Of a stretch of 64,000 nucleotides of DNA, positions 14,421-54,369 are shown piece by piece. Below the pieces are notes generated by a model. It worked only from the letters and a program-made list of their open reading frames with translations. It ran no database searches and was not told the DNA's origin. Both the position numbers and the translations under genes were made by a program. The stretch's first letter is position 1. Each line of letters starts with the position of its first letter. The stretch is from an uncultured Gammaproteobacteria bacterium (GTDB lineage: Bacteria > Patescibacteriota > Microgenomatia > JAMCZE01), in contig CAZXMM010000001.1 in the NCBI GenBank assembly GCA_964641255.1, positions 681,795-745,794 on the forward strand, written 5' to 3'.

Positions 14421-15504
14421 TTCCTTCCAGTAATTTTAGATTAACCCGTTCTCCCGGTTTAACAATATACGTAACGATTCTGGGAAATATTTTCTCCATC
14501 CGTTCCAGGTACAGCCGGAAGCGAGTGACCTGCTCTCCGTAAATACTGCTGTTGGTTCTGTACTGCGTCAAAATCTCATTGAAGGCCACCGCTGAACCGC
14601 TGGCTTCATTGATTTGCGCAGTCGCTGAACTGCTGGCTTCGGTGATGAGCTTCTGCGCCTGACCACGGGCTTCCGGAATGACACTGTTTTTATACCCTTC
14701 GGCTTCATTGACAGTCTTGCTTTTATCCTCTCTAGCGCTTGAGACGTCACGGAACGCGTCAGCTACTTCGTCCGGCGGATAGGCCTTTTGAAAATTAACG
14801 CTGACCACAGCCAGACCGCTGTTATACCCGTCAAGCAGGGTCTGTGTCTCTTTCTGCAGCCGGTTCAAAACACTCTGGCGCTCCGAGGTAAGGATGTTAT
14901 CAACAGCTGTCTCTGCGCTCACTTTGGTCACTGCCGCCCGTACGGCATCCCGGACAATCTGATACGGCGCATAGTCAATATTAAACAAATAATCGGCGGG
15001 TTCCCTGATCTGGTACTGGACAATGACCTCGTAATCAACAATATTAGTGTCCCCGCTTAACACCTGCAATTTACCCGGTTGTTCGGGATGTTTGGGATGC
15101 TCCGGTTCGGGGCTCAGGAGGCCGACGCTTTCGCGTCTGACTTCGGAAACATTCACAATGGTTTCGCGGTCAACCGGCCACGGCAGACGATAATGCAGAC
15201 CTTCCGATACTTTGGGACTGACTACTTTGCCGAAACGGGTAACTACCGCCGCTTCTCCGGGTTTAACGATATAAATGCCGGAAAGAAAATAAACGGCCAC
15301 AATAATTTTGACAATATTCCCGGAAATATAGCGGGCATTGACGTGGGCAAAGGCCTGTTTGATGTCAGCCAGGGATGATGATCCGTCGGCTGACCGGATT
15401 TTGGCCATAACAGACTGAATCAACCGCACCAGTATACCGACAACCGTGAGTATGCGTTTGGTGATCTCTGCTAACAGTTGTTTTATTTTGTTCATTTGTT
15501 CCAT
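14371..15504 (-). CDS. hflK: HflK-like SPFH/band-7 protein
   Basis: TM helix then SPFH core (GEAAVVTRFGKV, DEVADAFRDVSSAREDK, YKNSVIPEARGQAQK). Confidence 0.75.
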   Translation of the reverse strand: MEQMNKIKQLLAEITKRILTVVGILVRLIQSVMAKIRSADGSSSLADIKQAFAHVNARYISGNIVKIIVAVYFLSGIYIVKPGEAAVVTRFGKVVSPKVSEGLHYRLPWPVDRETIVNVSEVRRESVGLLSPEPEHPKHPEQPGKLQVLSGDTNIVDYEVIVQYQIREPADYLFNIDYAPYQIVRDAVRAAVTKVSAETAVDNILTSERQSVLNRLQKETQTLLDGYNSGLAVVSVNFQKAYPPDEVADAFRDVSSAREDKSKTVNEAEGYKNSVIPEARGQAQKLITEASSSATAQINEASGSAVAFNEILTQYRTNSSIYGEQVTRFRLYLERMEKIFPRIVTYIVKPGERVNLKLLEGNETKVNVFPPQTESSR

Positions 15505-15568
15505 ATAAAGATACCGACACTTCTTTACTTATCTTTCTTCACGATTTCAGTGCTTCATCTCAATCCGC

Positions 15569-16501
15569 TTACGGATTGAGATATTTTAAGAGCTCTGAAT
15601 CTGAAGGAAGAATAAGCGTTGTGCCCTGATTTATGACCTTGTCGTATGACTCAAGCGTACGCAGGAACTGGTAAAATGCCGGATCCTTACCAAATGCCTG
15701 AGCATAAATCCGGATTGCCTGAGCCTCACCCTCTCCCTTAATCCGGTTTGATTCTTCCTGGGCTTTAGACAAAAGAGTGGTTTTCTCGGCATCTGCTTCG
15801 GCTCTGATCTTTGTTGCTTCTTCAGTACCCTCAGAGCGCAGCTGCCTGGCTATCTGCTGGCGTTCTGCGCGCATACGCTGAAATACGCTTTGTCTGTTTG
15901 CCTCAGGGAAGTTAAGCTGTTTGAGCCGCACATCGGCAACTTTAAAACCGTACGAGCGTGTACGCTCATCTGTTTGCTTGGTAAGACCCGCAAGCATTTC
16001 ATCCAGCTTCATCTGGCTTTGGTCGGTAGTGACCAGATTAGTCAACTCATACTGCGACAGTGCCACTCCGAGCTCGGACGTGAGAATATCGGATAGTCGT
16101 GATGATGCTCCCTGGGCATCTCTGACACTTTTGAAAAACTGTACCGGGTCATCTATCTGCCAGGTGGCATAGGCTTCTACTAAAATATTTTTCTTGTCCT
16201 TGGTCAGAAACTCCGTTTCGGTCAGATTATGGACCTGGATCCTTTTATCAAGTTTGATGAGATTTTGCAGCGGATCGGGAAGCTTGACATACAACCCCGG
16301 CTCTTTAATGGCGCGGACGGGACTGCCGAACTGTGAAACGATAGCGTATTGTGTCGCGTCTACCTGAAACGCAACCAAAGTTGAAAGAATCAGTAAAATT
16401 CCGACTCCTAAACCAATTAACATTTTCGGCTGACGCAGCATCTGCCAACTGATTCTGCTTCTTGCCTGATCTATGAATGATGATTGTGTTCTGTTTCTCA
16501 T
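15569..16501 (-). CDS. hflC: HflC-like SPFH protein
   Basis: Start moved to ATG at 16501 (GGAGGTG RBS, MRNRTQSS). The longer track ORF overlaps the upstream gene. YAIVSQFGSP and RIYAQAFGKDPAFYQFLRTLESY are HflC-like. Confidence 0.75.
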   Translation of the reverse strand: MRNRTQSSFIDQARSRISWQMLRQPKMLIGLGVGILLILSTLVAFQVDATQYAIVSQFGSPVRAIKEPGLYVKLPDPLQNLIKLDKRIQVHNLTETEFLTKDKKNILVEAYATWQIDDPVQFFKSVRDAQGASSRLSDILTSELGVALSQYELTNLVTTDQSQMKLDEMLAGLTKQTDERTRSYGFKVADVRLKQLNFPEANRQSVFQRMRAERQQIARQLRSEGTEEATKIRAEADAEKTTLLSKAQEESNRIKGEGEAQAIRIYAQAFGKDPAFYQFLRTLESYDKVINQGTTLILPSDSELLKYLNP

Positions 16502-16514
16502 AAATTCACCTCCT

Positions 16515-18068
16515 TTACGGCTGGGCAGTTTTTCCATTAGTAATCCACAAATCGGTGGAATTAGTTTCCACCCGCGGATCGAGAATGTATTTTTTAATGT
16601 TTGGCAATACTTTTTCCAGAGACTCAAGGTATAAGCGGGTACGGGTAACCTGGGGAGCATTCTGGTAGGCAGTGAGTTTTTTACTGAAACGTTCTGCTTC
16701 ACCGGTGGCAAGCGCGATCTTACTGGCTTTTTCCGCTTCTGCAGTGGTCACCTGTTTAGTAGCTTCTCCCCGGGCAACAGCGACTGTTTCGTTTTTATAC
16801 GCCAGGGCTTCATTCATATATGTGTTTTTGTCTTCTCTAGCACTGGCCACATCCAAAAATGCGTCAGCTACTTCGCCCGGCGGAGTCACCGAAAGCAGTT
16901 GAACATTGGTTACTTTTATTCCGGTGTTATGTTCTTTGAGTAAATTTTGCGTCCCGCTCGTAGTTTGTGCCAAGATCGCACTTCTTGAAGCGGTTAACAA
17001 ATCGTCGACACCTCTTTGAGCAACCGCGGCTCTAAACGCTGTTTCCGTCTCTTTGGCAAGTAAATTTTCCGGATTTTGGATGCTAAAAAGATAATCGGCG
17101 GGATTCGTAATCGTATACTGAACTGTTAATTTGGTATTAATAAGGTTCGTGTCACCGGTAAGCACTAAAGATGCGTCCGTCTGAACCTGGCGCACTTCGT
17201 CCACATTGACTCTGGCTATGGTATCAACCAGAGGAACCCGGGCATGCAGCCCTGGCCCGAACGAACCGACAACTTTTCCGAATCTGGAAACAACGGCCTG
17301 TTCGCCCATGGGAACGGTATAGACACCGGAAAGCAGGATAAAAAGAACCGCAATTCCTCCGAGGTACGCGAGCATCCGCTTATTATGCAAAAAGGCCAGA
17401 TGATGGTGTCCTTCAATATGATTGGGTAATGCCTGTTTGGTCCGCAGGGCATGAATGGCTGACTCGGCAATTTCCCAGCCGGAAGTAACGATCAGAACAA
17501 TCACAAATATCGCGGCCAGTTTATCCAGAGCAGGAAACCCAACGGCAGCAGCAATAAGCCCTACAACGACAAGAACCGAAGCATACAGATCCATCCGCGA
17601 ATGATATCCGCTGGCAATAAGGGAAAGGGAATTGGTGGCACGACCAACGAACTCTTTGTACCTTGCAGTGAAGTAGGTAATGGCTATAGTTAAAAATGCC
17701 CCGATGGTCACCAGCCAGATATTTCTGAGATCAGGTGTTTCTGAGGCGCCGGTTACTTCCCGGAAAATATCCAGCGCCGAGAAAAACATCAGACCGGAGA
17801 CGATCAGGGCAACGATATTTTCAATTGTTCCCGCCTGCAACCGACGTCTGGCTTCCCAGGCCGCAGATAAAAGCCCTAAAAGTACAAAGACGGAAACAAA
17901 GACATCCCCGACAGAATGCCAGGCACTGGCTTTAAGTGATAAACTACCCGATGAGGAAGCGAGGAAAAACTTGAGAAGGACGAGAATTACATTAGCAACA
18001 ATGGTGACGACAATGGTTTTTTCTTTCCGGTTCATAGTTAGGTAATATGAAATCTCTGGGCAGCACAA
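16515..18068 (-). CDS. Fusion: cation-diffusion-facilitator-like TM domain plus HflK-like SPFH domain
   Basis: N-terminal 6-TM region with CDF-like HxxxD motifs (AWHSVGD, SGYHSRMD). C-terminal GEQAVVSRFGKV...ADAFLDVASAREDK...YKNETVAVARGEATK is HflK-like. Confidence 0.6.
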   Translation of the reverse strand: MCCPEISYYLTMNRKEKTIVVTIVANVILVLLKFFLASSSGSLSLKASAWHSVGDVFVSVFVLLGLLSAAWEARRRLQAGTIENIVALIVSGLMFFSALDIFREVTGASETPDLRNIWLVTIGAFLTIAITYFTARYKEFVGRATNSLSLIASGYHSRMDLYASVLVVVGLIAAAVGFPALDKLAAIFVIVLIVTSGWEIAESAIHALRTKQALPNHIEGHHHLAFLHNKRMLAYLGGIAVLFILLSGVYTVPMGEQAVVSRFGKVVGSFGPGLHARVPLVDTIARVNVDEVRQVQTDASLVLTGDTNLINTKLTVQYTITNPADYLFSIQNPENLLAKETETAFRAAVAQRGVDDLLTASRSAILAQTTSGTQNLLKEHNTGIKVTNVQLLSVTPPGEVADAFLDVASAREDKNTYMNEALAYKNETVAVARGEATKQVTTAEAEKASKIALATGEAERFSKKLTAYQNAPQVTRTRLYLESLEKVLPNIKKYILDPRVETNSTDLWITNGKTAQP

Positions 18069-31540: not shown

Positions 31541-31939
31541 ATGAAAACACTTAATCAGAATATCCATCCGGCAACTCTCCTCCCCATTGGAGTAATTACT
31601 GAAACGACTCAAGGTTCAGCAGTTGATAGTTATCTCTCCGGCCGACCGGCTTATGACTCCGGTCTTATCGACGTCGCCATCGGGAACCTCGGCGATCAAA
31701 CCTCTACCAAAGTAAAGATTGAAGAATCAGATGCTTCCGATTTTTCTTCAGGAGTAACTTTGGCCAAAGGCGGAGAGGAAATCACTGTTGCGGCAGACAC
31801 CGGCTACAAGATGCAGATTGAACGGAAGAAAAGATATCTCCGGGCAGTTGTAACTATTACTGCGGGCTCCGCTCCATCTGCTGAAGCATATGTCGGAGCA
31901 TTACTGTGGGACGCGCAAAGACCGTTCCCAATTACTTAA
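31541..31939 (+). CDS. Hypothetical phage protein
   Basis: 132 aa, first ORF of the co-directional structural block. Confidence 0.4.
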   Translation: MKTLNQNIHPATLLPIGVITETTQGSAVDSYLSGRPAYDSGLIDVAIGNLGDQTSTKVKIEESDASDFSSGVTLAKGGEEITVAADTGYKMQIERKKRYLRAVVTITAGSAPSAEAYVGALLWDAQRPFPIT

Positions 31940-33450: not shown

Positions 33451-34620
33451 ATGCCAGCATCAGCAACAGGAATCAGAGGTTCAGGTAATCTAGGGGCAAC
33501 CCGAAAGTATGACGTCGCAGACGTTGTATCGCTATTGGATGTCAACCGATATCCATTGATGGCGATATTAACAAACGCTGGTAAAGACCCAGCAACCGGC
33601 GAGGGCGAAGCACTTAAAAAGAAAGAGTCTACTGACCCGGAATTTAAATGGTTTGAAGATGAGTTTGGAAAGCGACAGCTTACCGGCTCAAGCACTGTCG
33701 ATCCTGATGGCGGTAACTTAACTGTCACAGGGCAATCGCAGTATCTTCAAGTCGGCGACATCATCTTGGTGTCCTCACAGAAGTGGGTCTTTCAGGTAAC
33801 CGCTATCGTAGACGCAAACACAGTAACAGTTGGTCCCGAACTCGGCGGTGCAACGGGCTCGGCTGCGTCAGCAGTCGGAGACGTCTGGCTCATTGGTAAC
33901 GCCAATGAGGAAGGTGCAGGTTTGCGAGATATCAAATCGACCACCATTGCCGAAGTGTCCAACTACTGTCAGATTTTCAGAACTCCAGTCGGTATCACTG
34001 AAACTGCCCGAAATACTCAAGGATGGGTGAAAGAAAATGACTTTGATTACCAGAGGCGCAAAAAAGGTATTGAGCACTATGTTGATATCGAGCGCACATT
34101 TATCTTTGGTAAGAAAGGAATCATCACTTCCGGAACTCACCCCAAGAGGTTTACAAGCGGAATTCTAGGAAGGATTGCTACTTACGCAACTGCCAACGTT
34201 GACACCGAGTCTGAGTTTGACTCATGGCTTGAAAGTCTCTTTGCGCACGGCAACACAGAAAAGTATCTCTTCGCTTCAGCTTCGGTCGTTTCGATGATCA
34301 ATGGCTGGGCAAAAGGGAAACTCCAGGTAGTCAATCCAACTAAAGCCTACGGGTTAAGAATCGTTACTTACGACTCTCCACACGGCACTCTGCACATCAT
34401 CAAGCATCCACTATTAATTGGAACAACCTATGGTAACTACGCCATCGGTTTAGATATGGAAGCTTTGACATACCGCTATCTGACCAATCGTGACACCAAG
34501 CTTTTGACTAACCGTCAAAATCCAGGTGAAGACAGTCAGGTTGATGAGTATCTAACCGAGTGTGGATTACAGATGGAACAAGAGCAACGCCACGCCATCA
34601 TGAGTATCGGCTCGCTCTAA
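33451..34620 (+). CDS. Major capsid protein (putative)
   Basis: 389 aa, strong RBS AAGGGAGGTG, position after scaffold-like gene, followed by a hairpin cluster. Confidence 0.5.
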   Translation: MPASATGIRGSGNLGATRKYDVADVVSLLDVNRYPLMAILTNAGKDPATGEGEALKKKESTDPEFKWFEDEFGKRQLTGSSTVDPDGGNLTVTGQSQYLQVGDIILVSSQKWVFQVTAIVDANTVTVGPELGGATGSAASAVGDVWLIGNANEEGAGLRDIKSTTIAEVSNYCQIFRTPVGITETARNTQGWVKENDFDYQRRKKGIEHYVDIERTFIFGKKGIITSGTHPKRFTSGILGRIATYATANVDTESEFDSWLESLFAHGNTEKYLFASASVVSMINGWAKGKLQVVNPTKAYGLRIVTYDSPHGTLHIIKHPLLIGTTYGNYAIGLDMEALTYRYLTNRDTKLLTNRQNPGEDSQVDEYLTECGLQMEQEQRHAIMSIGSL

Positions 34621-38237: not shown

Positions 38238-38942
38238 ATGCAATTACAGGAATTTAGACAAGATTTAAACGCCAGAATGACAGCCGCAAAAATAAGCGGT
38301 TTCTGGAAGGATGCTGATAAAGATCGTTGGATTAACAAAGCGATAGTACGCGCGTGCAATTTTGCCCGTTTTAAGTTCCTCAGCAAACACGCCAGTCAAC
38401 TCACAGAACTAAATCCCGATGGCTCGGGGAAAGAGTCATACTTTCTTCCCTTTGACTTTAAGCCGGGTGGCATGGTTTTCCTCTCCGTAGATGGCGAGGA
38501 GCATCACAAGGCTTCCGAGAACCAATATTTAAGCCGTAAATCAGATAACAAGATAGCTCCTACTTTTCATCCCTCTCTCGACATAGTTCACCCCTCTCTT
38601 CATACAGACTGGCGATGGCAAAAAATCTATGCCGTAATCGGAGATCAATATTTTATAGATCCTCCGGCTGATGTGGCTGGCAAAGTAATCGACCTCTTTT
38701 ATAAACGCCGCCCGGTTCGACTGGTTGAAGAAACCGATGAACCAATTACTCCGGAAGAACTTGATGAACCTATCTTGAAACTGGCATTAGCCACCTGCCT
38801 TGCAAAAGAGCCAGGGAGAAAAAACGAAGCAGAAAAAGAAGTTATTGAAGCTCACGCCTTATTACAACAAACCAAAGACCGCGAGGACGAGGAACCATCG
38901 GCCGTCTTCGTGGGACAGGCAAAAAGCACCCGATGGTCATAA
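38238..38942 (+). CDS. Hypothetical phage protein
   Basis: 234 aa. Confidence 0.4.
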   Translation: MQLQEFRQDLNARMTAAKISGFWKDADKDRWINKAIVRACNFARFKFLSKHASQLTELNPDGSGKESYFLPFDFKPGGMVFLSVDGEEHHKASENQYLSRKSDNKIAPTFHPSLDIVHPSLHTDWRWQKIYAVIGDQYFIDPPADVAGKVIDLFYKRRPVRLVEETDEPITPEELDEPILKLALATCLAKEPGRKNEAEKEVIEAHALLQQTKDREDEEPSAVFVGQAKSTRWS

Positions 38943-40396: not shown

Positions 40397-41731
40397 ATGT
40401 TGACCAAAGATATTAAAAAAATATTAACAAACAGAGAGGTTGAAGACCAACCGTTTCCTGAGGTGATCCCTCATTCTCACAATGGCATGGACTCACCATT
40501 GTTAGCCCCGAACTCTGTCGATACTGTCAATATCAAACCTGGTGCAGTTGGCGATAACGAACTGGATGACTTCTCCGTAACTGAACAGAAACTGGCTGAT
40601 GCTGCAGTAGCCACTGGCAAAATCAAAGAAGATGCTGTCACCGCCGCAAAGGTGTACAAAGCAGGATCTGTTATCACCCTCTCAGCTCAGATCGCAGAAG
40701 CAATTATTCTGACGGCTCATATCGGACTTGCCCAAATTACTAACTCCCGAATAGGAAACGCCGCTATCTCCACAGCAAAAATCCAGACAGCCGCAATCAC
40801 AAATGCAGAAATAGCAGATGCAGCGATTACGAATGCAAAAATAGGAGCTTTAGAAGTCGGTAACTCACGAATAGCCAATGCTGCTATCAGCACTGCCAAA
40901 ATTCAAGATGCAGCCGTGACAAATGCCGAAATTGCTGACGCGTCTATCACTAATGCCAAAATTGGTGCGCTAGAAGTTGGCAACTCTCGCATTGCAAACG
41001 CAGCCATAAGCACAGCCAAGATTCAGGATCTGGCAGTTACAGATGCCGAAATCAACGACTTAAACGCTGGGAAGATCACTGCTGGCTCAATGAGCGCTGA
41101 ACGTATTTACGGAGGGACCGGATACTTCACCAGAATTAACATCTTGATGTCGGGATTAGAAGCGTTGAATGTGGCTGGAAATATAAATAAATCCGGAACA
41201 TCAAACTTCTCAATTCCTCATCCATTGAAAAAGGGCCATAGATTGGTTTATACTGGTATTGAGGCAGCAGAAGTTCTCCTCGTTCATCGAGGAACAGCCA
41301 CTCTACGTAACGGACAGACACGAATTGACTTCCCAGACCACTTCATAGCGGTCAGCGATCCCAGAAACATTACCGCATATCTGACTCCCAAGCAAAACTG
41401 CAACGGACTTTTCATTGTCGAAGTAACAAACGACCATCTTGTCGTGCAAGAACTGCAAGGAGGAATATCCTCCGCTCAGTTTGATTACATGGTCGTAACA
41501 GTCCGTGATAAATTCTTCGACTTTGACTTTGAACCAGAAGGTGAAATCGCCATCAAACGTAATGACGAAGACGAGGAAACTTTCAAGCAACGCTATCTGG
41601 AACACAGAATAAACGAGATCACCAAAAAAGGTGGTCCCAAAGTCCAGGAGCAAATTGACCAACTGCGGAGTGAATTTATCACCTCAGTTGGCAGAAAGGA
41701 GGTCACAGGCAATGTCAAAAAAACAAACTAA
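40397..41731 (+). CDS. Tail fibre/spike protein with tandem 40-aa repeats
   Basis: NAEIADAAITNAKIGALEVGNSRIANAAISTAKIQDAAVT repeated, beta-helix-like 10-aa periodicity. Confidence 0.5.
   Translation: MLTKDIKKILTNREVEDQPFPEVIPHSHNGMDSPLLAPNSVDTVNIKPGAVGDNELDDFSVTEQKLADAAVATGKIKEDAVTAAKVYKAGSVITLSAQIAEAIILTAHIGLAQITNSRIGNAAISTAKIQTAAITNAEIADAAITNAKIGALEVGNSRIANAAISTAKIQDAAVTNAEIADASITNAKIGALEVGNSRIANAAISTAKIQDLAVTDAEINDLNAGKITAGSMSAERIYGGTGYFTRINILMSGLEALNVAGNINKSGTSNFSIPHPLKKGHRLVYTGIEAAEVLLVHRGTATLRNGQTRIDFPDHFIAVSDPRNITAYLTPKQNCNGLFIVEVTNDHLVVQELQGGISSAQFDYMVVTVRDKFFDFDFEPEGEIAIKRNDEDEETFKQRYLEHRINEITKKGGPKVQEQIDQLRSEFITSVGRKEVTGNVKKTN
40706..41100 (+). repeat. Intragenic tandem repeats (~120 bp unit, about 3 copies) in the tail fibre gene
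   Basis: Amino-acid repeats nearly identical, nucleotide copies diverged at synonymous sites. Confidence 0.6.
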
Positions 41732-41945: not shown

Positions 41946-43012
41946 TGGCGACAAAACAATACGGCGGTTGGTATTGGCAACCTGATCAAAATAAAGCTCT
42001 CAGATGGTGGGGTACTGATTCTTCCGGCAAAGACATTTACACAACCGGCGATGAACCAGGCAAGCAACAATCCGTCAGCAATTTAAGTAGCGGTCTTTCT
42101 CAGGTTGGTGGTTCTAGTATCTTGGGTTTTGATGTAGGAACGCTCAATACTCGATTTCAAGACACTTATAAACAAGCTCAAGATTTATCATCAGATCTCG
42201 AAACCTATCAAACAAGGCGCTACGACGAAGAATATGGCAAAGCGGAACTTGGCAAACTTAAAGATACCATTAGCTCTTTGGATACAAGTATCGCAAGTGA
42301 AAAAAATGTTCGTGATGAGTCAGTCAGCAAGATCCGCAAAAATCCGGGCTATTCCGCAGCCACAATAACCGGTGAATCCGGAGAGGTTCAACGACTTGCC
42401 AATGCAAAAATTGGAAATCTCATTGAAGAACGCAATGCAAAAGCTGAAGATTACAACGCCCGCCTCGGAGAAATAACACGCAAAGTAACATCTGAAACTC
42501 AAGGCAAAGAAGCCAAACTTAACAATCTGCGCTATGACCTTCAATTTTTAGGTGGACTCCTCAATACATACAACCAGATTCGATCTTCCGAACTTTCCTC
42601 CGCCAAAGAGGATGAACGCTGGGAGCGGGAATTTGAACTCAAACTCTATGACGCTCAAACAAGCAGGTTAAGAGCTGGTGAAGGCGGTAGCGGAACTTAC
42701 GCTAAACAACAAGTCAAAGATGCATTTGGAAATGTGGTTGGTTTCTTCGACCCAACTTCGGGCAAGACTAATCTTTATGAGCAACCCTCGAGTCAATCAC
42801 AAACGACCACTGTAAATGAAGGCGACCTAAGAACAGAAATTAGATCTGCTTGGAAGCAGGGTTATAACGCTGACCAGCTCAAAACAAATCTCTCAGGAGT
42901 AAGTACAGATAAAGGAAAGAGTGCCACACAAATTATAGATGAAGAATGGCAACTCAAAAATCAACCAGGTGTGATGGGATTCTTAAGACGCTTATTTACA
43001 CCTGGAGTTTAA
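41945..43012 (+). CDS. Hypothetical internal virion protein
   Basis: 355 aa, coiled-coil-rich. Position matches the T7 gp14/gp15-like internal proteins. Confidence 0.35.
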   Translation: MATKQYGGWYWQPDQNKALRWWGTDSSGKDIYTTGDEPGKQQSVSNLSSGLSQVGGSSILGFDVGTLNTRFQDTYKQAQDLSSDLETYQTRRYDEEYGKAELGKLKDTISSLDTSIASEKNVRDESVSKIRKNPGYSAATITGESGEVQRLANAKIGNLIEERNAKAEDYNARLGEITRKVTSETQGKEAKLNNLRYDLQFLGGLLNTYNQIRSSELSSAKEDERWEREFELKLYDAQTSRLRAGEGGSGTYAKQQVKDAFGNVVGFFDPTSGKTNLYEQPSSQSQTTTVNEGDLRTEIRSAWKQGYNADQLKTNLSGVSTDKGKSATQIIDEEWQLKNQPGVMGFLRRLFTPGV

Positions 43013-43017
43013 TGCAT

Positions 43018-46000
43018 ATGGACAATTTTTTATCACAAATTAAGAAAAACATAACCTCGTCAATTCAAAATACGAGTCAAACTCTTGGTGGTATTTTTGG
43101 GAAATCGCAACAAGCAGCTTCCTCTCTAGTACGTTCTGGCTCTGAAAAAATTCAGGATATTCTAAAACCGCTCGAAAAACTAAAGCCTGAACAATACGAC
43201 ATCGCCATTCCAGGTCCCACAACCGGCTCCTACAAACCATTCAAAAATCTGTATGTAGAAGCGGCAGCACAAACACTTGGATTGGGTGCTAGAGATACAG
43301 ATGTACTTGAGCGATTGCCAAGTGCAACAATCGGAGCATTAAAAGGTGCCGGAGATGGTCTTGCCCAAGCCTTAACTTTTGGCTGGTGGAATCCGGAAAT
43401 AAAGTACGCCAATGACATCGAAAAAATGGCCGGTGACATGACGGAGGTGGAGTTTAATGTTTTAGGAACAATAGGAACTTTTGTGGTAGGAGGAGGTCTA
43501 GTTCAAGGAGCACTCAAAGGTGTTCCACTTCTTGGAAGAGTTGCTACAGTTGCTCCAAGAACATTTAGTCTACTTTCGAATGGACTTACTTTTGCAGGGT
43601 TAACCCAACTGCAAAAAGAAGAATCCTACAAAGATGCGCAGCAACGCGCCAAAGATTTTGTAAGCGATTTTGCCTTAGGTGGAGCTTTCTCCATAGCCGG
43701 AATGAAACCTTCATTTCTTAAATCCTCTGCGATTATCGGGCCAGCGACTTACGTTACTTCACTTATTAAAGGTGACTCCAATGAAGATGCTCTCAAAAAC
43801 ACCGCAGCAATGATTGGACTTCACTCACTTAACTTTGCCGTAGCAAAATACTTACCCAACAAATCTGCGGTAGAAAGTCAGATAGAAAAAGCGGCCAGTG
43901 AACAACTCAAAATAACCAAAAAACAAGCTCTCGAGTATCTTGGAGTAAATGAGACAGCAACTGCAGAGCAGGTCAAGCAAGCATGGAAAAATAAAGTAGT
44001 CGGTATTACTAAACAGTTTCCAGCTCAAGCCAACCAAACACCACAAGAAATGGGTCAATTTAATCAAGCTTGGAATACAGCCAATAGAGCCTATGAGTTT
44101 TTAGCAAAGGTAAGCAATCCCACTGGATATACTGGCAAGTCTTTCAGACAAGAATTTCAAGACCTTTACTACGACCTCTGGAAAAATGTTCCTGACAAAA
44201 GAGCATTGGTCATCAAAGCAGTTCGCAATATGCCTGCAGGGCTCTCAATCAGAGCCACACTCAACGAGGCCCAGAGAAGCGAAATTGTCACAGCTCTTGG
44301 AGGGCAAGAAACAAAAACCAGACTCGGCCGTGTTGCAGAATTAACTGATGCCGATTTGGTAACAGTAGCGATGGAAAACAAAATACCGGTTACTCCTTCA
44401 AAACAATCAACTCAACCAACTATTCAGAAAGAATCGATAATTCCTTCTGAACTAAAATTAAGTAGTCAAGAGCAAAAAGCTTTCAAAGCTACAGAGATTC
44501 GAGATAAATATCGAAGTGATGGTGAAATTGAACTAGAAAAGATTGAGCGAACGAACAAAGATGTATCACAGACAACTCTCATTCAAAAACGGCGCCAAGG
44601 TCAAATAGTTGCACCGGAGCAACCGCGAGCGGATGAGGCGAAAGATCCACCGCCTGGTAGTCCTCCTAGACCTCCCCAGGAAACACCTATTGGTTCTGAT
44701 TCACCACCGCCGGAAGGGAGTGCTTTAAGCCAGATCGATGCGATGGTTGGAAAGCTTTCTCCTGCCGCAAACCTCTTGGACAAGGCTAAAAAAGCAATTC
44801 AGGTTTTCCCACGTCTTTTTACTGACCGCTTCGCTCCTATTCGGGAGTTTGAAAACAAAGTAAGTAAACTGCAAGGCAAGCCTATCGATATCAACTCCAG
44901 TCCTTATGTGGGCGCCCGAATGTACGCGGGACGTTTTGGTATTGTTGAGGGTAGTTTCCGGGATCTGTATACCGCACTTCAACCTGTCAGAAAATTGCGG
45001 GCAGACTTTACCCGCTATGTACTTGCTCAAAGAACGGCTGAAAGAGCCGCCAGAGGTGTTGAAAATCCACTTGAGGTAACTCAAGAAACTGCAGAGAAAG
45101 CACTCCAGGAACTAAAAACTAAAGTGGGCGACAAAGCATTTAAAACATTTGAGCAGGTTGGTAACGGCATGCAAAATTGGGCAGTTAAAGCAATTCTCGA
45201 ACCCATGAGAGATGCTGGGATTTTAAGCAATAAAGCCTTCAACGCTGTTGTTGAGAAAAATAAGAACTGGCTTCCATTCCATGTTTTGGAATACATACCT
45301 ACGCTGGAAGAAGCAGACAAGATGGCGGTCGGCTCCGAAACATTTTCAGTGAGTAAACAAGGCGTTGTGAGTGCTCTTGAAGGAACAGACAAGGTCATTC
45401 GGGATCCATTTATCTCCGTAATAGACAACCTCACAAAAGCGGTCAGTCTTGTTGAACGAAATAAAGTAGCCTTGAAACTGGTAGAGCTTCGCAAGACTCA
45501 CCCTGATGCAACTAAAGGGTTGATTAGATTCTTACCCACCAAAGAAAATGCTCCGCAAGATTGGGAATCAATTAGCGTATTTATCGACGGCAAGGTAACG
45601 CGCTGGGCTGTGCCAAAAGAATTATCTGAAGCCATGCACGCCATGAGCCCTGCAGAGTCAGGTTTGATGGGTAAGTTAGTAATGATGTCTTCAAAAGCAT
45701 TTAAGGCAGGTACAACTACGCTCTATTTTCCATTCACCCTTTCCAATGCAGTACGGGACTATCAAACCGCAACAATGGTTTCCAAATATGGCTTTAATCC
45801 TGCAGTATGGCTATCAGGATTTAAAGACGGCTTCCGCTCGGCGTTTAAATGGGAATCCAAAGCCTATGACGAATTTATGAGAAATCAAGGTGGCTATGGG
45901 AGCTACATTGAATCAACCAAAGGTTTGTCAGTTGCCTCTGATCAATTATTCCGACCCAGATGGATGGAAAGAACGAAAGCTGTTCTTAATCCCTTTGAGT

Positions 46001-47259
46001 TAATAGGTAACTTCTCTGAAGCCATAGAACTTGCTCCGAGACTTGGAATCTATAAAAAAGCGCTCAGTAAAGGAGCCAGTCCTTTGGAAGCAGCATTTGA
46101 AGCACGAAACGTGACGGTCGACTTTGCTAAAGCAGGAGTTGAAGCCCGACTGATTAATATGTGGGTTCCGTTTGTAAATGCACGATGGCAAGGTTTACTA
46201 AATGTCACCCGTGTCATGAAAGACAATCCCGTCCGGACTGCTGCCAGAGCTCTTGCAATGACTGTTCTTCCCGGAATTGCTACTTACTTTTACAACGTTA
46301 TGAATCATGAAGACCTTTGGGACGATATTCCTCAGTGGGCAAAGGATACCTACTTCATCATTATTGTAGGTGAGGAAAAAGATGAAGATGGTAATAAACT
46401 TCCAAAAGTAATCCAGATCCCTAAAGGTGACGTAGGAACAATTTTCTTCAACCCTCTGATGTATTCGTTTGAGTATGTCCGTAAACAAGAACCTCAAAAC
46501 CTCTTCAAGCTCGGTCTGGAGTGGATGAGTCAGTTAGCTCCGGTTCCGTTTACAAGAGATGGTGAATTATCAGCTCAGGCCTTCTTCTCAGGAGCTTTGC
46601 CGCCAATTATTCGCACCCCTTTGGAAATAGCGACAAATACAAACTTCTTTACTGGATTTCCGGTTGTCCCAAGAAAACTGGAGAAGGTTGCCCCGTCAGA
46701 GCAATACGATAGGAGAACACCTGATTTGGCAATCACAATCGGCCGCGCTTTAGGAGTAAGTCCTATGAAACTAACCCATGCTGTCTATGGATTAACCGGA
46801 AGCTTGGCCAGAGAGCTTCTTAGTCCTGCTGATGTGCTAGGACTGACAATGGATCGTTTTTACCGAACTCAGGGCGGTGAGAAGCAACGTAGGGCCTGGG
46901 ACATCAAATATGAAGCAGAGGTAGGCTACAACACCACCCGACTGCAAATGAAGAAGCTGGTCGAAGCAGGTGACCTTCAGGGGGCACAGCAAATGGCACT
47001 AAGATGGAATGAGGAAGCAGAAAAACTAATTCCCCAAGTTGTTCCGCTTCTGATGAAAGATGATCCCAAAGAAGCATCGCTCTTCCAAAGCAGCATAACT
47101 TTTAACGCCAGCGATTTGCAACGCTTATTAAAAACAACTCTTCCTGGTGGTATTCCTCAGGAAACTGACAATGATGAACAGAAATCAACACTAATTCCAT
47201 TGAAGAATGGGTCCAATTCCACAGACAATCAAAGTATTAAGAGTTTGATTTATAGATAA
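43018..47259 (+). CDS. Large internal virion/core protein, 1413 aa, gp16-like by position
   Basis: Largest ORF of the module, before the lysis genes. Contains a J-domain-like segment without an HPD motif. Start trimmed to ATG 43018. Confidence 0.45.
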   Translation: MDNFLSQIKKNITSSIQNTSQTLGGIFGKSQQAASSLVRSGSEKIQDILKPLEKLKPEQYDIAIPGPTTGSYKPFKNLYVEAAAQTLGLGARDTDVLERLPSATIGALKGAGDGLAQALTFGWWNPEIKYANDIEKMAGDMTEVEFNVLGTIGTFVVGGGLVQGALKGVPLLGRVATVAPRTFSLLSNGLTFAGLTQLQKEESYKDAQQRAKDFVSDFALGGAFSIAGMKPSFLKSSAIIGPATYVTSLIKGDSNEDALKNTAAMIGLHSLNFAVAKYLPNKSAVESQIEKAASEQLKITKKQALEYLGVNETATAEQVKQAWKNKVVGITKQFPAQANQTPQEMGQFNQAWNTANRAYEFLAKVSNPTGYTGKSFRQEFQDLYYDLWKNVPDKRALVIKAVRNMPAGLSIRATLNEAQRSEIVTALGGQETKTRLGRVAELTDADLVTVAMENKIPVTPSKQSTQPTIQKESIIPSELKLSSQEQKAFKATEIRDKYRSDGEIELEKIERTNKDVSQTTLIQKRRQGQIVAPEQPRADEAKDPPPGSPPRPPQETPIGSDSPPPEGSALSQIDAMVGKLSPAANLLDKAKKAIQVFPRLFTDRFAPIREFENKVSKLQGKPIDINSSPYVGARMYAGRFGIVEGSFRDLYTALQPVRKLRADFTRYVLAQRTAERAARGVENPLEVTQETAEKALQELKTKVGDKAFKTFEQVGNGMQNWAVKAILEPMRDAGILSNKAFNAVVEKNKNWLPFHVLEYIPTLEEADKMAVGSETFSVSKQGVVSALEGTDKVIRDPFISVIDNLTKAVSLVERNKVALKLVELRKTHPDATKGLIRFLPTKENAPQDWESISVFIDGKVTRWAVPKELSEAMHAMSPAESGLMGKLVMMSSKAFKAGTTTLYFPFTLSNAVRDYQTATMVSKYGFNPAVWLSGFKDGFRSAFKWESKAYDEFMRNQGGYGSYIESTKGLSVASDQLFRPRWMERTKAVLNPFELIGNFSEAIELAPRLGIYKKALSKGASPLEAAFEARNVTVDFAKAGVEARLINMWVPFVNARWQGLLNVTRVMKDNPVRTAARALAMTVLPGIATYFYNVMNHEDLWDDIPQWAKDTYFIIIVGEEKDEDGNKLPKVIQIPKGDVGTIFFNPLMYSFEYVRKQEPQNLFKLGLEWMSQLAPVPFTRDGELSAQAFFSGALPPIIRTPLEIATNTNFFTGFPVVPRKLEKVAPSEQYDRRTPDLAITIGRALGVSPMKLTHAVYGLTGSLARELLSPADVLGLTMDRFYRTQGGEKQRRAWDIKYEAEVGYNTTRLQMKKLVEAGDLQGAQQMALRWNEEAEKLIPQVVPLLMKDDPKEASLFQSSITFNASDLQRLLKTTLPGGIPQETDNDEQKSTLIPLKNGSNSTDNQSIKSLIYR

Positions 47260-47265
47260 ACAGCT

Positions 47266-48333
47266 ATGGCAGATATAACAAGACCAATCGAACCATTTGA
47301 ACTCAATCAAGGCTTTGGAGAAAATCCTGCAGACTATGCCCGATTTGGACTCAAAGGGCATAACGGCTGGGACTTAAAAACAAAATTCCCCGATACACCC
47401 CAAGGCTTCCGCAACATTCTCTCTTCTTGGGCTTCTAAATTTTATGCACAGGGCAACGAAGGCAATGACGGCTTCGGGCTTTACTTTGAAGTTATCGTAC
47501 AGCTCTATAACAGCTACAAACTGACCTATGCCCACTGTAAATCCATTGAGAGTTTTGAAAATAAAAACGAAGGTGACACGATGGCTATCAGCGATAACAC
47601 CGGCAATAGTACCGGCAGCCACCTGCACCTTACGGTAAAACGTGGCCAACTCCAAAACGGAAAGTTTGTAAGTGACAACTATAACAATGGATATTTTGGA
47701 GCAATTAATCCTCAGGAGTTCTTTGATGAACTCAGAAAATATAAGAAAGAAAAAGGGACAGCTTCCGCTCCAGAAGGTTGCTTGGTACCAAACACACCCG
47801 AATGGCGAACCAAGTATGAGCAGGTAGTCTTTTCCGCAACTAAATGGGCCGATACTCTCAAGATTTTAGAGATCGCAGACGACCCTAACACTACCCCCAG
47901 CGACAGAATTAAAAGTGTAGTCGGAGGGTATAAAAGCAGAGAAACTGACCTATCTAACAAGCTAAATGAGAAGTCTATTGAAGTCAGTAAAGCCACCCAG
48001 GAGATAACCAATAGAGTCGAACAAGTTGGCAGACTTGAGAAGGATTTGCTAGAGAAGGATAAATACTATAAAGCCCTGATTGACGCACTGAATAAACAGC
48101 TCAAACACGGCTCAGATGCACTCCCCTTAGCTCAGGCTCGCATAGGGGTACTGGAAGACCAGCTGGACGAGGCAAACAAAGCCAAAGGCAGAGCACTTAA
48201 TGATGCTCAGGAAGCCAAGAGTCAGCTTGATGCGTGCCAAAAAGGTACGCTTGTTCCGACTCCTCAACTCATTTTCTCTCTCGTTGTTCAGTACTTCGGC
48301 AATAAATTACATAAAGGAGGTGACAAGGTATGA
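47266..48333 (+). CDS. M23-family peptidase-domain lysin with C-terminal coiled coil
   Basis: HNGWD (HxGxD) and GSHLHL (HxH) motifs. Confidence 0.65.
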   Translation: MADITRPIEPFELNQGFGENPADYARFGLKGHNGWDLKTKFPDTPQGFRNILSSWASKFYAQGNEGNDGFGLYFEVIVQLYNSYKLTYAHCKSIESFENKNEGDTMAISDNTGNSTGSHLHLTVKRGQLQNGKFVSDNYNNGYFGAINPQEFFDELRKYKKEKGTASAPEGCLVPNTPEWRTKYEQVVFSATKWADTLKILEIADDPNTTPSDRIKSVVGGYKSRETDLSNKLNEKSIEVSKATQEITNRVEQVGRLEKDLLEKDKYYKALIDALNKQLKHGSDALPLAQARIGVLEDQLDEANKAKGRALNDAQEAKSQLDACQKGTLVPTPQLIFSLVVQYFGNKLHKGGDKV

Positions 48334-51677: not shown

Positions 51678-51751
51678 GCTCCCGTAGCTCAACTGGATAG
51701 AGCAAGTCGGTTCTAACGATTAGGTTCCGTGTTCGAGTCACGGCGGGAGCA
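51678..51751 (+). tRNA. tRNA-Arg (anticodon TCT)
   Basis: Hand-folded: acceptor GCTCCCG/CGGGAGC, D-arm GCTC..GAGC, anticodon stem AGTCG/CGATT (one G-U), loop GTTCTAA, T-arm CCGTG-TTCGAGT-CACGG. Position 32 is G, which is unusual. No encoded CCA. Confidence 0.65.
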
Positions 51752-51756
51752 CCTCA

Positions 51757-52001
51757 TGTGGACAGTCTATATCCTTGAGTGTGCCGACCACTCTCTTTAT
51801 ACCGGCATTGCCCTTGACCCCGTTAAACGCCTGGCTGCTCACAATCAGGGTAGGGGAGCCAAGTATGTCCGTAGTAAACTGCCAGTTAGATTGTTGTATC
51901 AAGAAATTTGCTTAACCAAAAGCTCGGCCCTAAGACGTGAGGCCGTGATTAAACAGCTATCTCGAAGTAGTAAACTAGCTTTAATCACCACACAAACCTA
52001 A
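51757..52001 (+). CDS. GIY-YIG nuclease-superfamily small protein (UPF0213-like)
   Basis: WTVYILECADHSLYTGIALDPVKRLAAHNQG. Start set at ATG 51757 just after the tRNA. Confidence 0.7.
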
Positions 52002-52032
52002 GCGTAGATACTTGTTATAATGTGCTATCCAT

Positions 52033-52105
52033 GGTGGCTGTAGCTCAGTGGTAGAGCGTTAGATTGTGGATCTAAAAGTCGCGGGTTCGATCCCCGTCAG
52101 CCACC
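52033..52105 (+). tRNA. tRNA-His (anticodon GTG) with encoded G-1
   Basis: G-1 pairs with C73. Acceptor GTGGCTG/CAGCCAC, D-arm GCTC-AGTGGTA-GAGC, anticodon stem TTAGA/TCTAA, loop TTGTGGA, T-loop TTCGATC. Confidence 0.75.
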
Positions 52106-52180
52106 CTATAGTATTTTATGGGCACTGGGGGCTAGGTTCATCAATTGTACATCCAACCCGCCCAATGAATTTTTGTCCTT

Positions 52181-52960
52181 ATGGCCTACTTTAAATCACA
52201 TGCAGGGCAGGTTTATTTCGACGAAGCAGGTCAAGGGGAGACCATAGTTTTTGTCCACGGCAGAACACTTGATTCTCGCATGTGGCAACCCCAAGTCGAT
52301 TATTTCAAATCAAAGTTTAGATGTATCATATATGATCTCAATGGATTTGGCAGGTCTGAGGTTCCCAAAGATGAGTACGACCCATCGAGAACATTAAAGG
52401 AATTGATTGATCATGTGAGCCTTAAGAAAACTTTTATTGTGGGGCTATCATTAGGAACATATTTTGCTATAAATTTCGCTCTGGATTATCCAGAATATAT
52501 CAAAAAATTAGTACTTATGTCCGGCGCCGTTCCCGGGACTACATTTAAATTCGAATTTAAGAAGGAATGGCAACGGGTCGCCGATGCTGGTCAAGCAGGC
52601 AACTTCGATTTAGCAAAAAACCTATGGTTGTCCGGAACTGCTTTTAAAACCCTTCCTACTAACAATCTCGAGAACTATAAATTATTTAAATTAATGGTTG
52701 ATGAGTATACGTGCTGGGACCTCAATAATCCGCCGACACAAAGGTCGAGAAAGAATGATGTCAGCAACCTTAAAAAAATTACGGCGCCGACTTTAGTCAT
52801 TTCTGGCAAAAAAGATGCAACTGACTTTGTGAACAATGGCAGGCTGCTAAAAACGTATTTACCAAATGCTAGGTTAGTGGAGATTGAGGATGCTGGTCAC
52901 ATGGTTAACCTAGAATTTCCTGATAAAGTTAACCACGTGGTTGATGAATTCCTAACCTAA
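52181..52960 (+). CDS. Alpha/beta-hydrolase fold protein
   Basis: VFVHGRT, GLSLGT (GxSxG), EDAGHM. Confidence 0.7.
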   Translation: MAYFKSHAGQVYFDEAGQGETIVFVHGRTLDSRMWQPQVDYFKSKFRCIIYDLNGFGRSEVPKDEYDPSRTLKELIDHVSLKKTFIVGLSLGTYFAINFALDYPEYIKKLVLMSGAVPGTTFKFEFKKEWQRVADAGQAGNFDLAKNLWLSGTAFKTLPTNNLENYKLFKLMVDEYTCWDLNNPPTQRSRKNDVSNLKKITAPTLVISGKKDATDFVNNGRLLKTYLPNARLVEIEDAGHMVNLEFPDKVNHVVDEFLT

Positions 52961-53071
52961 GTGTCCTGGACAATCCCACCCCATTCTTGTCTCTCGCCAC
53001 TACACTTGTGCGTAAATCGTCCAACCGGCCACCCTTACAATCCCATAGTTAGTTGACTCTATTAACTTTTC

Positions 53072-53412
53072 GTGCTTAAATACAGCATGGTTGAGGTGTC
53101 CACAGCTATCGATACGCTCAGTTATACAATGCCAATATTGGGGTTACTTCTTTTGGGAGTTACCAGGGCGGTGAGACGGGAAATAATTGCAAGACAACGT
53201 GGAACCTGTTTTGATTGTTATGTTGAGGCTGGAAATCAACTTGAGATTCACCATATCATCCCACAGTCAGCTGGGGGGGGAACGGTCATAATCTTTCTAA
53301 CCTTATAGCACTTTGTGGCTCAAAATATCGGGACTGCCATGAAAGGTGGGATTTAGCAGCTCAAAAAGGGGTTTTTCCGGATGGAACTCCTTTACCGCGT
53401 AGGAGCGGGTAG
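53072..53412 (+). pseudogene. HNH endonuclease disrupted by a -1 frameshift in a G8 homopolymer
   Basis: Upstream frame RGTCFDCYVEAGNQLEIHHIIPQSAGG. After the G8 tract at 53273..53280, the next frame reads NGHNLSNLIALCGSKYRDCHERWD, completing the HNH motif. Confidence 0.55.
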
Positions 53413-53472
53413 CATTCAGTAATTATGTACTCGGTCATCAGGGATTTATAGTCGAAATAACTAGTAAGTAGA

Positions 53473-54369
53473 CTACGAATAAAGTTTACTGAAAAAATTG
53501 GCTACCTCGACTGAGACTCGGTCTTCTGCTCCAAAATAGGTATGTCCTGATCCTGGAATAATTACCGTTTCGCAGTCTTTAAGATACTTTTTTAGCGTGG
53601 CCATATTTCCTTCAACACTCGTACCAAATTGCGAATAGGCAATAAAGGGGTCGTTCTCGCCGATAATTACTTTAACGGGCACCAAAATCTGCGAAAGAAT
53701 GGGGAAATTATAGTCCGGCCGATAAAAATCAAAAACACAACTTAGGTCACTCTGCTCATACCAGGAATAAAATGTTTCATAACTCATGGCGAAGTCTTCC
53801 CACTCGGGAACTGGCACTATCTCTCGGCCCTTTCCTTCCTCAACCTTTTTCTGGGCAATTGTTAGAAATTCTTTCCACTTACGGGGAGCTTTGGCCTCAA
53901 TAAAAGCATTCTTATCAAAAGGGGCTAGGAGTACTAATTTAGAAACTCTGTCTTTATATTTACCCTCAAACAGATATCTGACAGCTTTAATTGTTCCCAG
54001 TGAATGACCAATAAGGGCTATGTCCTTATAGCCGTCTTGTAAAAGAAAGTCGATAAAGCAACTAAGGTCTAAGTGGGCATCGTCTAATTTCTCATAGTAG
54101 GAACCCAAAAAAATCCCCTCTCCGTCAGTCTTCAAAAATTCAGTCACCACACCGGTCCCCCTGGTTTGAGCAAGAATAACGGCGTTTCCCTTATCCCTAA
54201 GAGCGGTTGTTACCTGGTGGTAGAAATCGTGCGAGTAGAAGTCGGTGGTAAAGCCATGGATGAAAATTGAGGCTGTTTTAGACTTGTCACCAGGAGCGAA
54301 CAGCCCGGTCAATTTTAACCCATCAGAGGTGAACCTCTGGATTAAGTTATATGAATTAGTTGTTTGCAC
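53473..54369 (-). CDS. Alpha/beta-hydrolase fold protein
   Basis: IHGFTTD, GHSLGT nucleophile elbow. Confidence 0.6.
   Translation of the reverse strand: MQTTNSYNLIQRFTSDGLKLTGLFAPGDKSKTASIFIHGFTTDFYSHDFYHQVTTALRDKGNAVILAQTRGTGVVTEFLKTDGEGIFLGSYYEKLDDAHLDLSCFIDFLLQDGYKDIALIGHSLGTIKAVRYLFEGKYKDRVSKLVLLAPFDKNAFIEAKAPRKWKEFLTIAQKKVEEGKGREIVPVPEWEDFAMSYETFYSWYEQSDLSCVFDFYRPDYNFPILSQILVPVKVIIGENDPFIAYSQFGTSVEGNMATLKKYLKDCETVIIPGSGHTYFGAEDRVSVEVANFFSKLYS

Follow-up and report, generated by a model that had tools for sequence, protein, structure and literature searches.

The window, i.e. the whole stretch of 64,000 nucleotides analysed here, carries between two alpha/beta-hydrolase genes a small broken gene with the motifs of an HNH endonuclease, which is divided over two reading frames at a run of eight G. 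The locus and its direct neighbours are composed as follows:

52181..52960, plus strand: alpha/beta hydrolase, the upstream neighbour, given as context
53087..53308, plus strand: frame A, N-terminal part of the broken gene, from ATG 53087 to TAG 53306..53308, 73 aa
53273..53280, plus strand: G8 homopolymer, site of the frame change as read from the sequence; its codons make up the conserved Gly-Gly(-Gly) loop that lies after the catalytic His-His and before the structural Asn
53281..53412, plus strand: frame B, C-terminal part of the HNH domain with NGHNLSNLIALC, the second Cys/His cluster (DCH), WD, a PDGTP tail and TAG 53410..53412
53473..54369, minus strand: alpha/beta hydrolase of the DUF1749 type, the convergent downstream neighbour, given as context

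Frame A contains, in this order, a hydrophobic segment, a basic RAVRREIIARQR stretch, the first Cys pair in CFDC, the catalytic motif LEIHH and the Gly-Gly motif. The residues before the junction read ..RAVRREIIARQRGTCFDCYVEAGNQLEIHHIIPQSAGGG, followed by nine out-of-frame, unrelated codons and the stop codon TAG at 53306..53308. An alternative in-frame start is the GTG at 53072, chosen in the original prediction, which would give 78 aa; the ATG at 53087 fits the N-terminal length of the homologues in the family alignments. From 53281, frame B reads NGHNLSNLIALCGSKYRDCHERWDLAAQKGVFPDGTPLPRRSG, carries N..NLIALC..DCH..WD and ends with TAG 53410..53412. The site of the frame change can be pinned to about 2-3 nt within the run: the Gly-Gly residues (53273..53278) are the last invariant residues in frame A and the match of frame B begins at 53281. 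With nine G the two frames form a single ORF of 113 aa from GTG 53072 or 108 aa from ATG 53087, with six G one of 112 or 107 aa, respectively, and with seven or ten G the frames stay unjoined. The proposal that one added or two removed G would restore a protein of about 110 aa is thereby confirmed. The run takes up codons 63-65 of 108, 58% into the gene, and is located in the catalytic core and not near the 5' end. On the opposite strand no competing ORF of more than 36 aa is present at the locus. The 73-aa truncated product is on record (P0001, an exact sequence match) from an NCBI contig of 950,062 bp. A scan of 52900..53520 for promoters and terminators gave two weak promoter-like sites only, both within the ORF and at chance level, and no terminator. 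The sequence TTGACT-17-TTAAAT upstream of ATG 53087, spotted by eye, fails the criteria of the promoter scan and is not claimed as a promoter. A Shine-Dalgarno motif is absent at the HNH gene, which is uninformative, since only 8 of the 33 well-supported genes of the window have one within 20 nt upstream of the start.

The repaired protein passes the Pfam profile PF01844 with 30.2 bits against a gathering score of 21.4, whereas the ORF as encoded (78 aa) stays under this threshold with 18.2 bits. An exhaustive HMMER search of 1.84 billion representative proteins gave 188 relatives at E ≤ 1e-3, with E-values down to 1.8e-19. The top five of them, the truncated protein itself excluded, are intact (101-131 aa, 45-57% identity), and their alignments are continuous across the junction. 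The invariant or near-invariant columns of the family (CxxC, E-HH, P, GG, N, LC, C-H and W-D) are retained on either side of the tract; in the repaired protein they are matched by C41, C44, E53, H55, H56, G63, G64, N72, L76, C77, C84, H85 and D89, split over the two frames. Judged by the Pfam score and the E-values of the homologues, the HNH identity is far beyond chance. The AlphaFold (AF2) model of the nine-G repair has a mean pLDDT of 81 with a core above 90 and places strands at residues 53-56 and 73-76 and a helix at residues 84-93; within the domain the pLDDT drops to 74 only at residues 61-70, the loop encoded by the tract. The best PDB matches of this model in Foldseek are all HNH domains (Cap5, Gme HNH, Cas9 and phage GVE2 HNH) with probabilities of 0.9-1.0 and modest E-values (6e-3 or weaker). 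The family profile matches the endonuclease (En) domain of a group II intron maturase with E = 2.8e-12 and McrA with E = 4.8e-12, and in PHROGs the repaired protein matches many HNH families, a generic similarity. Membership in a named defence system was considered and rejected, NCBIfam and PADLOC giving generic HNH similarity only (IscB, type IV restriction enzymes, ZorE, PtuB), far under the family cut-offs. An intact reading frame for the whole HNH domain is lacking, as the G8 frame stops short of the Asn residues and of the second zinc pair. By score, motifs and predicted fold the locus belongs to the HNH endonuclease superfamily, as an apparent pseudogene rather than a functional member. 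Pfam and the homologue alignments agree with the original prediction of an HNH endonuclease split at 53273..53280 with its motif elements in two frames.

The repaired protein shares the motifs CxxC, (L)E(I)HH, GG, N, NLxxLC and DCH with small stand-alone HNH endonucleases of PF01844, such as the Gme HNH nicking enzyme of Geobacter (PDB 4H9D) and the HNH of phage GVE2 (5H0M), and with the HNH domains of McrA (6GHC) and group II intron maturases (6ME0). It is similar to them in size (~100 aa) and in the beta-beta-alpha-metal fold, which is predicted here. In contrast to these examples, the present gene is frameshifted and cannot make the domain, and no terminase, methyltransferase or intron partner is found at the locus. 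A hydrophobic N-terminal segment of 15-19 residues followed by a basic stretch is present in 13 of the 16 closest family members (homologues P0016-P0034). In the repaired protein the hydrophobic segment comprises residues 11-25 (~53117..53161), with an AlphaFold pLDDT below 50. The combination of hydrophobic N-terminus and basic stretch suggests a membrane-tethered HNH domain; to our knowledge, the solved HNH examples (Gme HNH, GVE2, McrA, maturase) have no N-terminal hydrophobic segment.

The frameshift is real in the DNA at the consensus level in two samples. Proteins of the neighbouring genes occur in Logan assemblies as well. Over 20,780 bp the window is matched at 100% identity by a Logan contig of SRR14932608 (235 kb), and over 11,534 bp by one of SRR14932609 (79 kb; a second run and biosample), in both cases including the G8. 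Both runs are Illumina metagenomes of activated sludge from Uruguay (PRJNA509305; supplement of PMC13403791). In the collection searched only three contigs carry the locus, and the NCBI contig and the two Logan assemblies all have G8 at the consensus level, which is blind to minority tract lengths. As the two Logan samples share their project and country of origin, and as the NCBI contig may stem from the same reads, the three G8 calls may describe a single population. Illumina consensus sequences are reliable at runs of 8 nt. Because two independent assemblies of Illumina runs both have G8, a long-read homopolymer artefact is excluded; an error in the consensus is very unlikely. The protein sets of 5.8 billion clusters and 1.84 billion representatives contain no intact allele, and no other gene in the window is broken at a homopolymer.

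The comparison of orthologs asked for in the original prediction yielded no orthologue. A word-indexed protein search for an orthologue or close relative gave just the truncated protein itself; the GTDB species genomes and the viral contig collection contained no relative of the repaired HNH, and relatives in JGI metagenomes were found at 42-44% identity only, covering residues 42-85. In the seven homologous genes with readable DNA, the Gly motif is encoded by GGA GGA, GGA GGT GGT, GGT GGA or GGT GGT, and none of them has five or more G in a row there. At 13.9%, GGG is the least used Gly codon of the genome. The G tract is specific to the present lineage.

Identity to the top five homologues is 42-56% before the tract versus 42-50% after it, and frame B contains no secondary stop. 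Due to the lack of extra decay after the tract, the break can be dated as recent when set against the divergence of the family. The undecayed downstream half fits a very recent loss; it would fit a reversible switch or occasional read-through equally well. In 103 of 122 homologues the His-His and the conserved Asn are spaced by 13 residues, in three by 14 and in five by 15, compared with 14 in the six-G repair and 15 in the nine-G repair of the present gene. P0117 (HHIIPKAKGGNNNHELSNLICVC), an intact homologue with a spacing of 15, aligns with the nine-G repair across the junction without a gap, with 19 of 37 residues identical. This homologue and the loop-length statistics mildly favour an ancestor with nine G and a single-base deletion over the six-G alternative.

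P0028, which belongs to the same small HNH family, carries a frameshift as well, located between ..NLVGLCG in frame 0 and ..FNDCHDKWDQTAINNHQLPDGTPLE in frame +2 (..FNDCHDKWD..), with no homopolymer at the break. Its locus (L095 264..700) is identical in L096 (GCA_009612915.1), so that the same frameshift is found in a Logan contig and in GCA_009612915.1, which are independent records. The break of P0028 at a non-repeat site implies that loss of the small HNH gene recurs by ordinary mutation. About 70 bp downstream of P0028 a tRNA-like sequence was noticed by eye. Each of the closest homologues stands as a single gene in unrelated surroundings, namely beside tRNA synthetase and RecR genes, beside an EcoRI-like gene (P0020) or after a hydrolase gene; they are found among housekeeping genes of CPR-like contigs. 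From these contexts, the HNH gene can be regarded as a stand-alone accessory gene. The small HNH family with a hydrophobic N-terminus seems dispensable and is repeatedly lost.

The window originates from a genome of the Patescibacteria (CPR); the glycogen synthase (glgA), 1 kb from the HNH locus, shares no more than 72% identity with its counterparts in Patescibacteria-type MAGs. In 80 related genomes, fetched through glgA, the glycogen gene cluster downstream of glgA is shared, and in none of the 80 does an HNH gene or a hydrolase gene lie beside glgA, i.e. there is no syntenic orthologue. The HNH locus sits at a synteny break. Over 52.0-54.2 kb the GC content is 0.40-0.43 versus 0.45-0.50 on either side. 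This low-GC segment (52000..54250) contains the two alpha/beta-hydrolase genes and the HNH pseudogene, and it coincides with the end of synteny upstream of glgA. It is possibly a small accessory island.

Elsewhere in the window, at 51678..52106, a GIY-YIG nuclease gene (Pfam 64.5 bits) is located between tRNA-Arg(TCT) at 51678..51753 and tRNA-His(GTG) at 52034..52106. Its longest ORF (51729..) overlaps a tRNA, and the true start is probably the later one of the Logan gene call (81 aa); an Rfam scan at the gathering threshold reported tRNA-His alone in this region. At 14371..18068 on the minus strand, two adjacent SPFH/Band_7 genes were noted (15569..16711 and 16515..18068), the second of which is fused to a cation-efflux domain. 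A direct repeat of 94 nt with 74% identity (14686..14779 and 16791..16884) joins the second Band_7 gene to the ORF 14371..15504 and suggests paralogy.

We consider it likely that the locus is a recently inactivated frameshift copy of the gene for a small stand-alone HNH (beta-beta-alpha-metal) endonuclease in an ultra-small CPR bacterium of activated sludge, fixed at the consensus level. The intact protein of ~108 aa would have consisted of an N-terminal hydrophobic segment and a zinc-stabilised HNH domain of the McrA / group II intron / IscB type. The G-run encoding the Gly-Gly(-Gly) loop would have changed its length by replication slippage, most simply from G9 to G8; translation now stops nine codons past the run. 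According to sequence and model, the 73-aa product has neither the Asn residues nor the second Cys/His zinc ligands nor the alpha-helix of the beta-beta-alpha-metal finger. A product without these parts presumably cannot act as a nuclease, i.e. the allele would be a null allele. We infer that the ancestor had nine G, that the gene is non-functional and dispensable and that what is seen at present reflects a fixed loss, not one of the two phases of a switch. The locus resembles the homopolymer frameshift pseudogenes of reduced genomes, as in the poly(A) tracts of insect endosymbionts, in the one-base indel within a homopolymer, the well-preserved gene and the small genome (~0.95 Mb here). In those endosymbionts, slippage of the polymerase rescues a part of the frameshifted poly(A) genes' function. 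In contrast to them, the run here is G and not A/T, evidence of rescue is absent, and the gene is accessory and not a core gene.

The original prediction had left the choice between a phase-variable gene and a pseudogene, and the evidence fits the pseudogene, while the switch gained no positive support from three G8 assemblies, an unconserved tract, the lack of tract enrichment and the mid-gene position. As a contingency locus, a slipped-strand G-run under selection would turn the HNH nuclease on (G9/G6) and off (G8/G7) at high frequency within the population. The anatomy is the classic one, since the length of an in-gene G8 sets the frame: G9 and G6 keep the frame open, and G7, G8 and G10 disrupt it. 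By its nature a run of eight G slips easily, and the downstream half of the gene is undecayed. The same anatomy and mechanism, i.e. an in-gene G-run (here G8) that sets the frame by replication slippage, are found in the poly-G/C contingency loci of Campylobacter, Neisseria, Helicobacter and Mycoplasma, including restriction-modification genes. In contrast to those loci, the tract here has no length variation between assemblies at the consensus level, is neither enriched nor conserved and is located mid-gene, and there is no cognate methyltransferase. The homologue P0020 adjoins the gene of an EcoRI-like restriction enzyme, restriction-system nucleases are among the gene classes that vary in phase in other bacteria, and for mycoplasmas it is documented that restriction-modification components undergo poly(G) switching (PMC9465063). 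Against a switch, neither a partner methyltransferase nor a defence gene is present at our locus, all three assemblies from the two samples have G8 with no intact allele on record, and the tract, which is placed 58% into the gene in the catalytic core, is missing from every homologue examined.

Selection for the repeat, which would be expected to leave it conserved in relatives or over-represented, is likewise not evident from the tract statistics. In 72.8 kb, two G/C runs of at least eight were seen versus 0.5-1.5 expected (Markov order 1-5; P = 0.07-0.43), and three runs of at least seven versus 2.3-5.8 expected (Markov order 1-5). Long G/C runs are not enriched, and the G8 tract itself is not beyond chance. 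Moreover, the remaining long tracts gate no reading frame. The C8 at 62187..62194 lies within an intact 180-aa protein (61671..62213) with three Top1-type zinc-ribbon repeats and encodes DDQPPPP, a motif kept at the protein level in 3 of 10 cluster relatives; the remaining relatives end before it. This C8 does not act as a switch of the frame. The G7 at 62860..62866 is real, as the original prediction had stated, and does not serve as support for a switch: it precedes the GTG start at 62866, to which only its last G contributes, and breaks no frame. A TATAAT at 62854..62859 directly precedes the G7, and the protein from the GTG start has 408 aa and no Pfam match. With a run of G8 instead, this ORF would also be in frame with an ATG at 62858. 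However, the N-terminus of the only homologue of the 408-aa protein, P0166 (51% identity), is as long as that of the GTG-start version, so that G7 appears to be the normal state. The geometry of TATAAT, G7 and GTG suggests a leaderless transcript. In the literature searched, no paper joins phase variation, homopolymeric tracts and Patescibacteria. We regard a contingency locus as unlikely, and a working poly-G switch which toggles a membrane-associated stand-alone HNH nuclease in a CPR bacterium, with the sampled populations in the OFF phase, as more doubtful still.

A decaying HNH gene may alternatively have been left behind as a passenger after integration of the neighbouring phage-like element. 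The genes in question are:

31541..31939, plus strand: phrog_5707, phage-like module
33451..34620, plus strand: SU10-type major capsid protein, 152 bits
36541..38232, plus strand: amidase_2 protein, phage-like module
38238..38942, plus strand: SU10 adaptor, phage-like module
40397..41731, plus strand: tail-fibre-like protein, phage-like module
42946..47259, plus strand: LPD38 protein of 1437 aa, phage-like module
47266..48333, plus strand: M23-peptidase-like protein, phage-like module
9432..11321: weak SU10 portal-like match (25.8 bits, under the gathering score of 30), 20 kb from the module and beside a 1113-aa helicase

This structural module at ~31.5-48.6 kb, with SU10-type capsid, adaptor, tail fibre and LPD38 protein, is possibly a prophage or prophage remnant of the Patescibacteria host. 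The tRNA genes between the module and the HNH gene, the GC dip to 0.40-0.43 over 52.0-54.2 kb and the many PHROG families of HNH proteins that match the repaired protein would be compatible with a phage origin of the gene. However, uppS, two tRNAs, a hydrolase and ~4.5 kb separate the HNH gene from the last phage-like gene, and no att-like direct repeat places it within the phage-like element. Moreover, the viral contig collection holds no relative, and the closest homologues stand among housekeeping genes of CPR-like contigs. A phage passenger is therefore quite improbable.

Full-length HNH could in principle still be obtained from the G8 allele by recoding, through -1 ribosomal frameshifting on G_GGG_GGA or through slippage of RNA polymerase on the G-run. 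Frame A reads GGG GGG GGA at the run, formally a heptamer of the type X_XXY_YYZ, and a -1 slip would give exactly the nine-G product; the preserved downstream frame would also be explained. A stimulatory structure after the run is not found: the folding energy of 53265..53380 is no better than that of shuffled sequences (z = +1.19; 181 of 200 shuffles fold as well). The two-frame layout is also not a trait of the family, since the homologues examined are single ORFs, except for P0028, which is separately frameshifted at another, non-repeat site. Of a slippery site, a stimulatory element and a conserved two-frame layout, the features of programmed -1 frameshifting or slippage, the latter two are missing here. 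Heptamers made of G alone, like G-runs in general, are unfavourable for slippage of either the ribosome or RNA polymerase, and the bacterial transcriptional slippage known to us uses A/T runs of at least nine. Read-through of the G8 is expected in traces at most, and recoding as an explanation of the locus is highly improbable.

Least probable of all is the error that the original prediction had allowed for, i.e. an intact gene with nine G and a homopolymer miscall in the consensus: homopolymers are the commonest sites of indel errors and the repaired gene appears perfectly healthy, but two k-mer assemblies, made independently from Illumina runs of different biosamples, both reproduce the G8 in contigs of 235 kb and 79 kb with zero differences over 20.8 and 11.5 kb, and the window contains no further homopolymer-broken gene.

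In conclusion, the appropriate annotation of the locus is that of a frameshifted HNH pseudogene; it should neither be listed as a 73-aa hypothetical protein nor be "corrected" to nine G as though the G8 were an assembly error. If there were heterogeneity in tract length, it would be evidence for contingency loci in CPR bacteria, and a poly-G switch, if true, would be the first homopolymer phase-variable locus described in the CPR, as far as the searched literature shows. As a recent frameshift pseudogene, which is the reading we prefer, the locus matters little beyond its correct annotation and would represent one further case of gene loss by homopolymer slippage in a reduced CPR genome.
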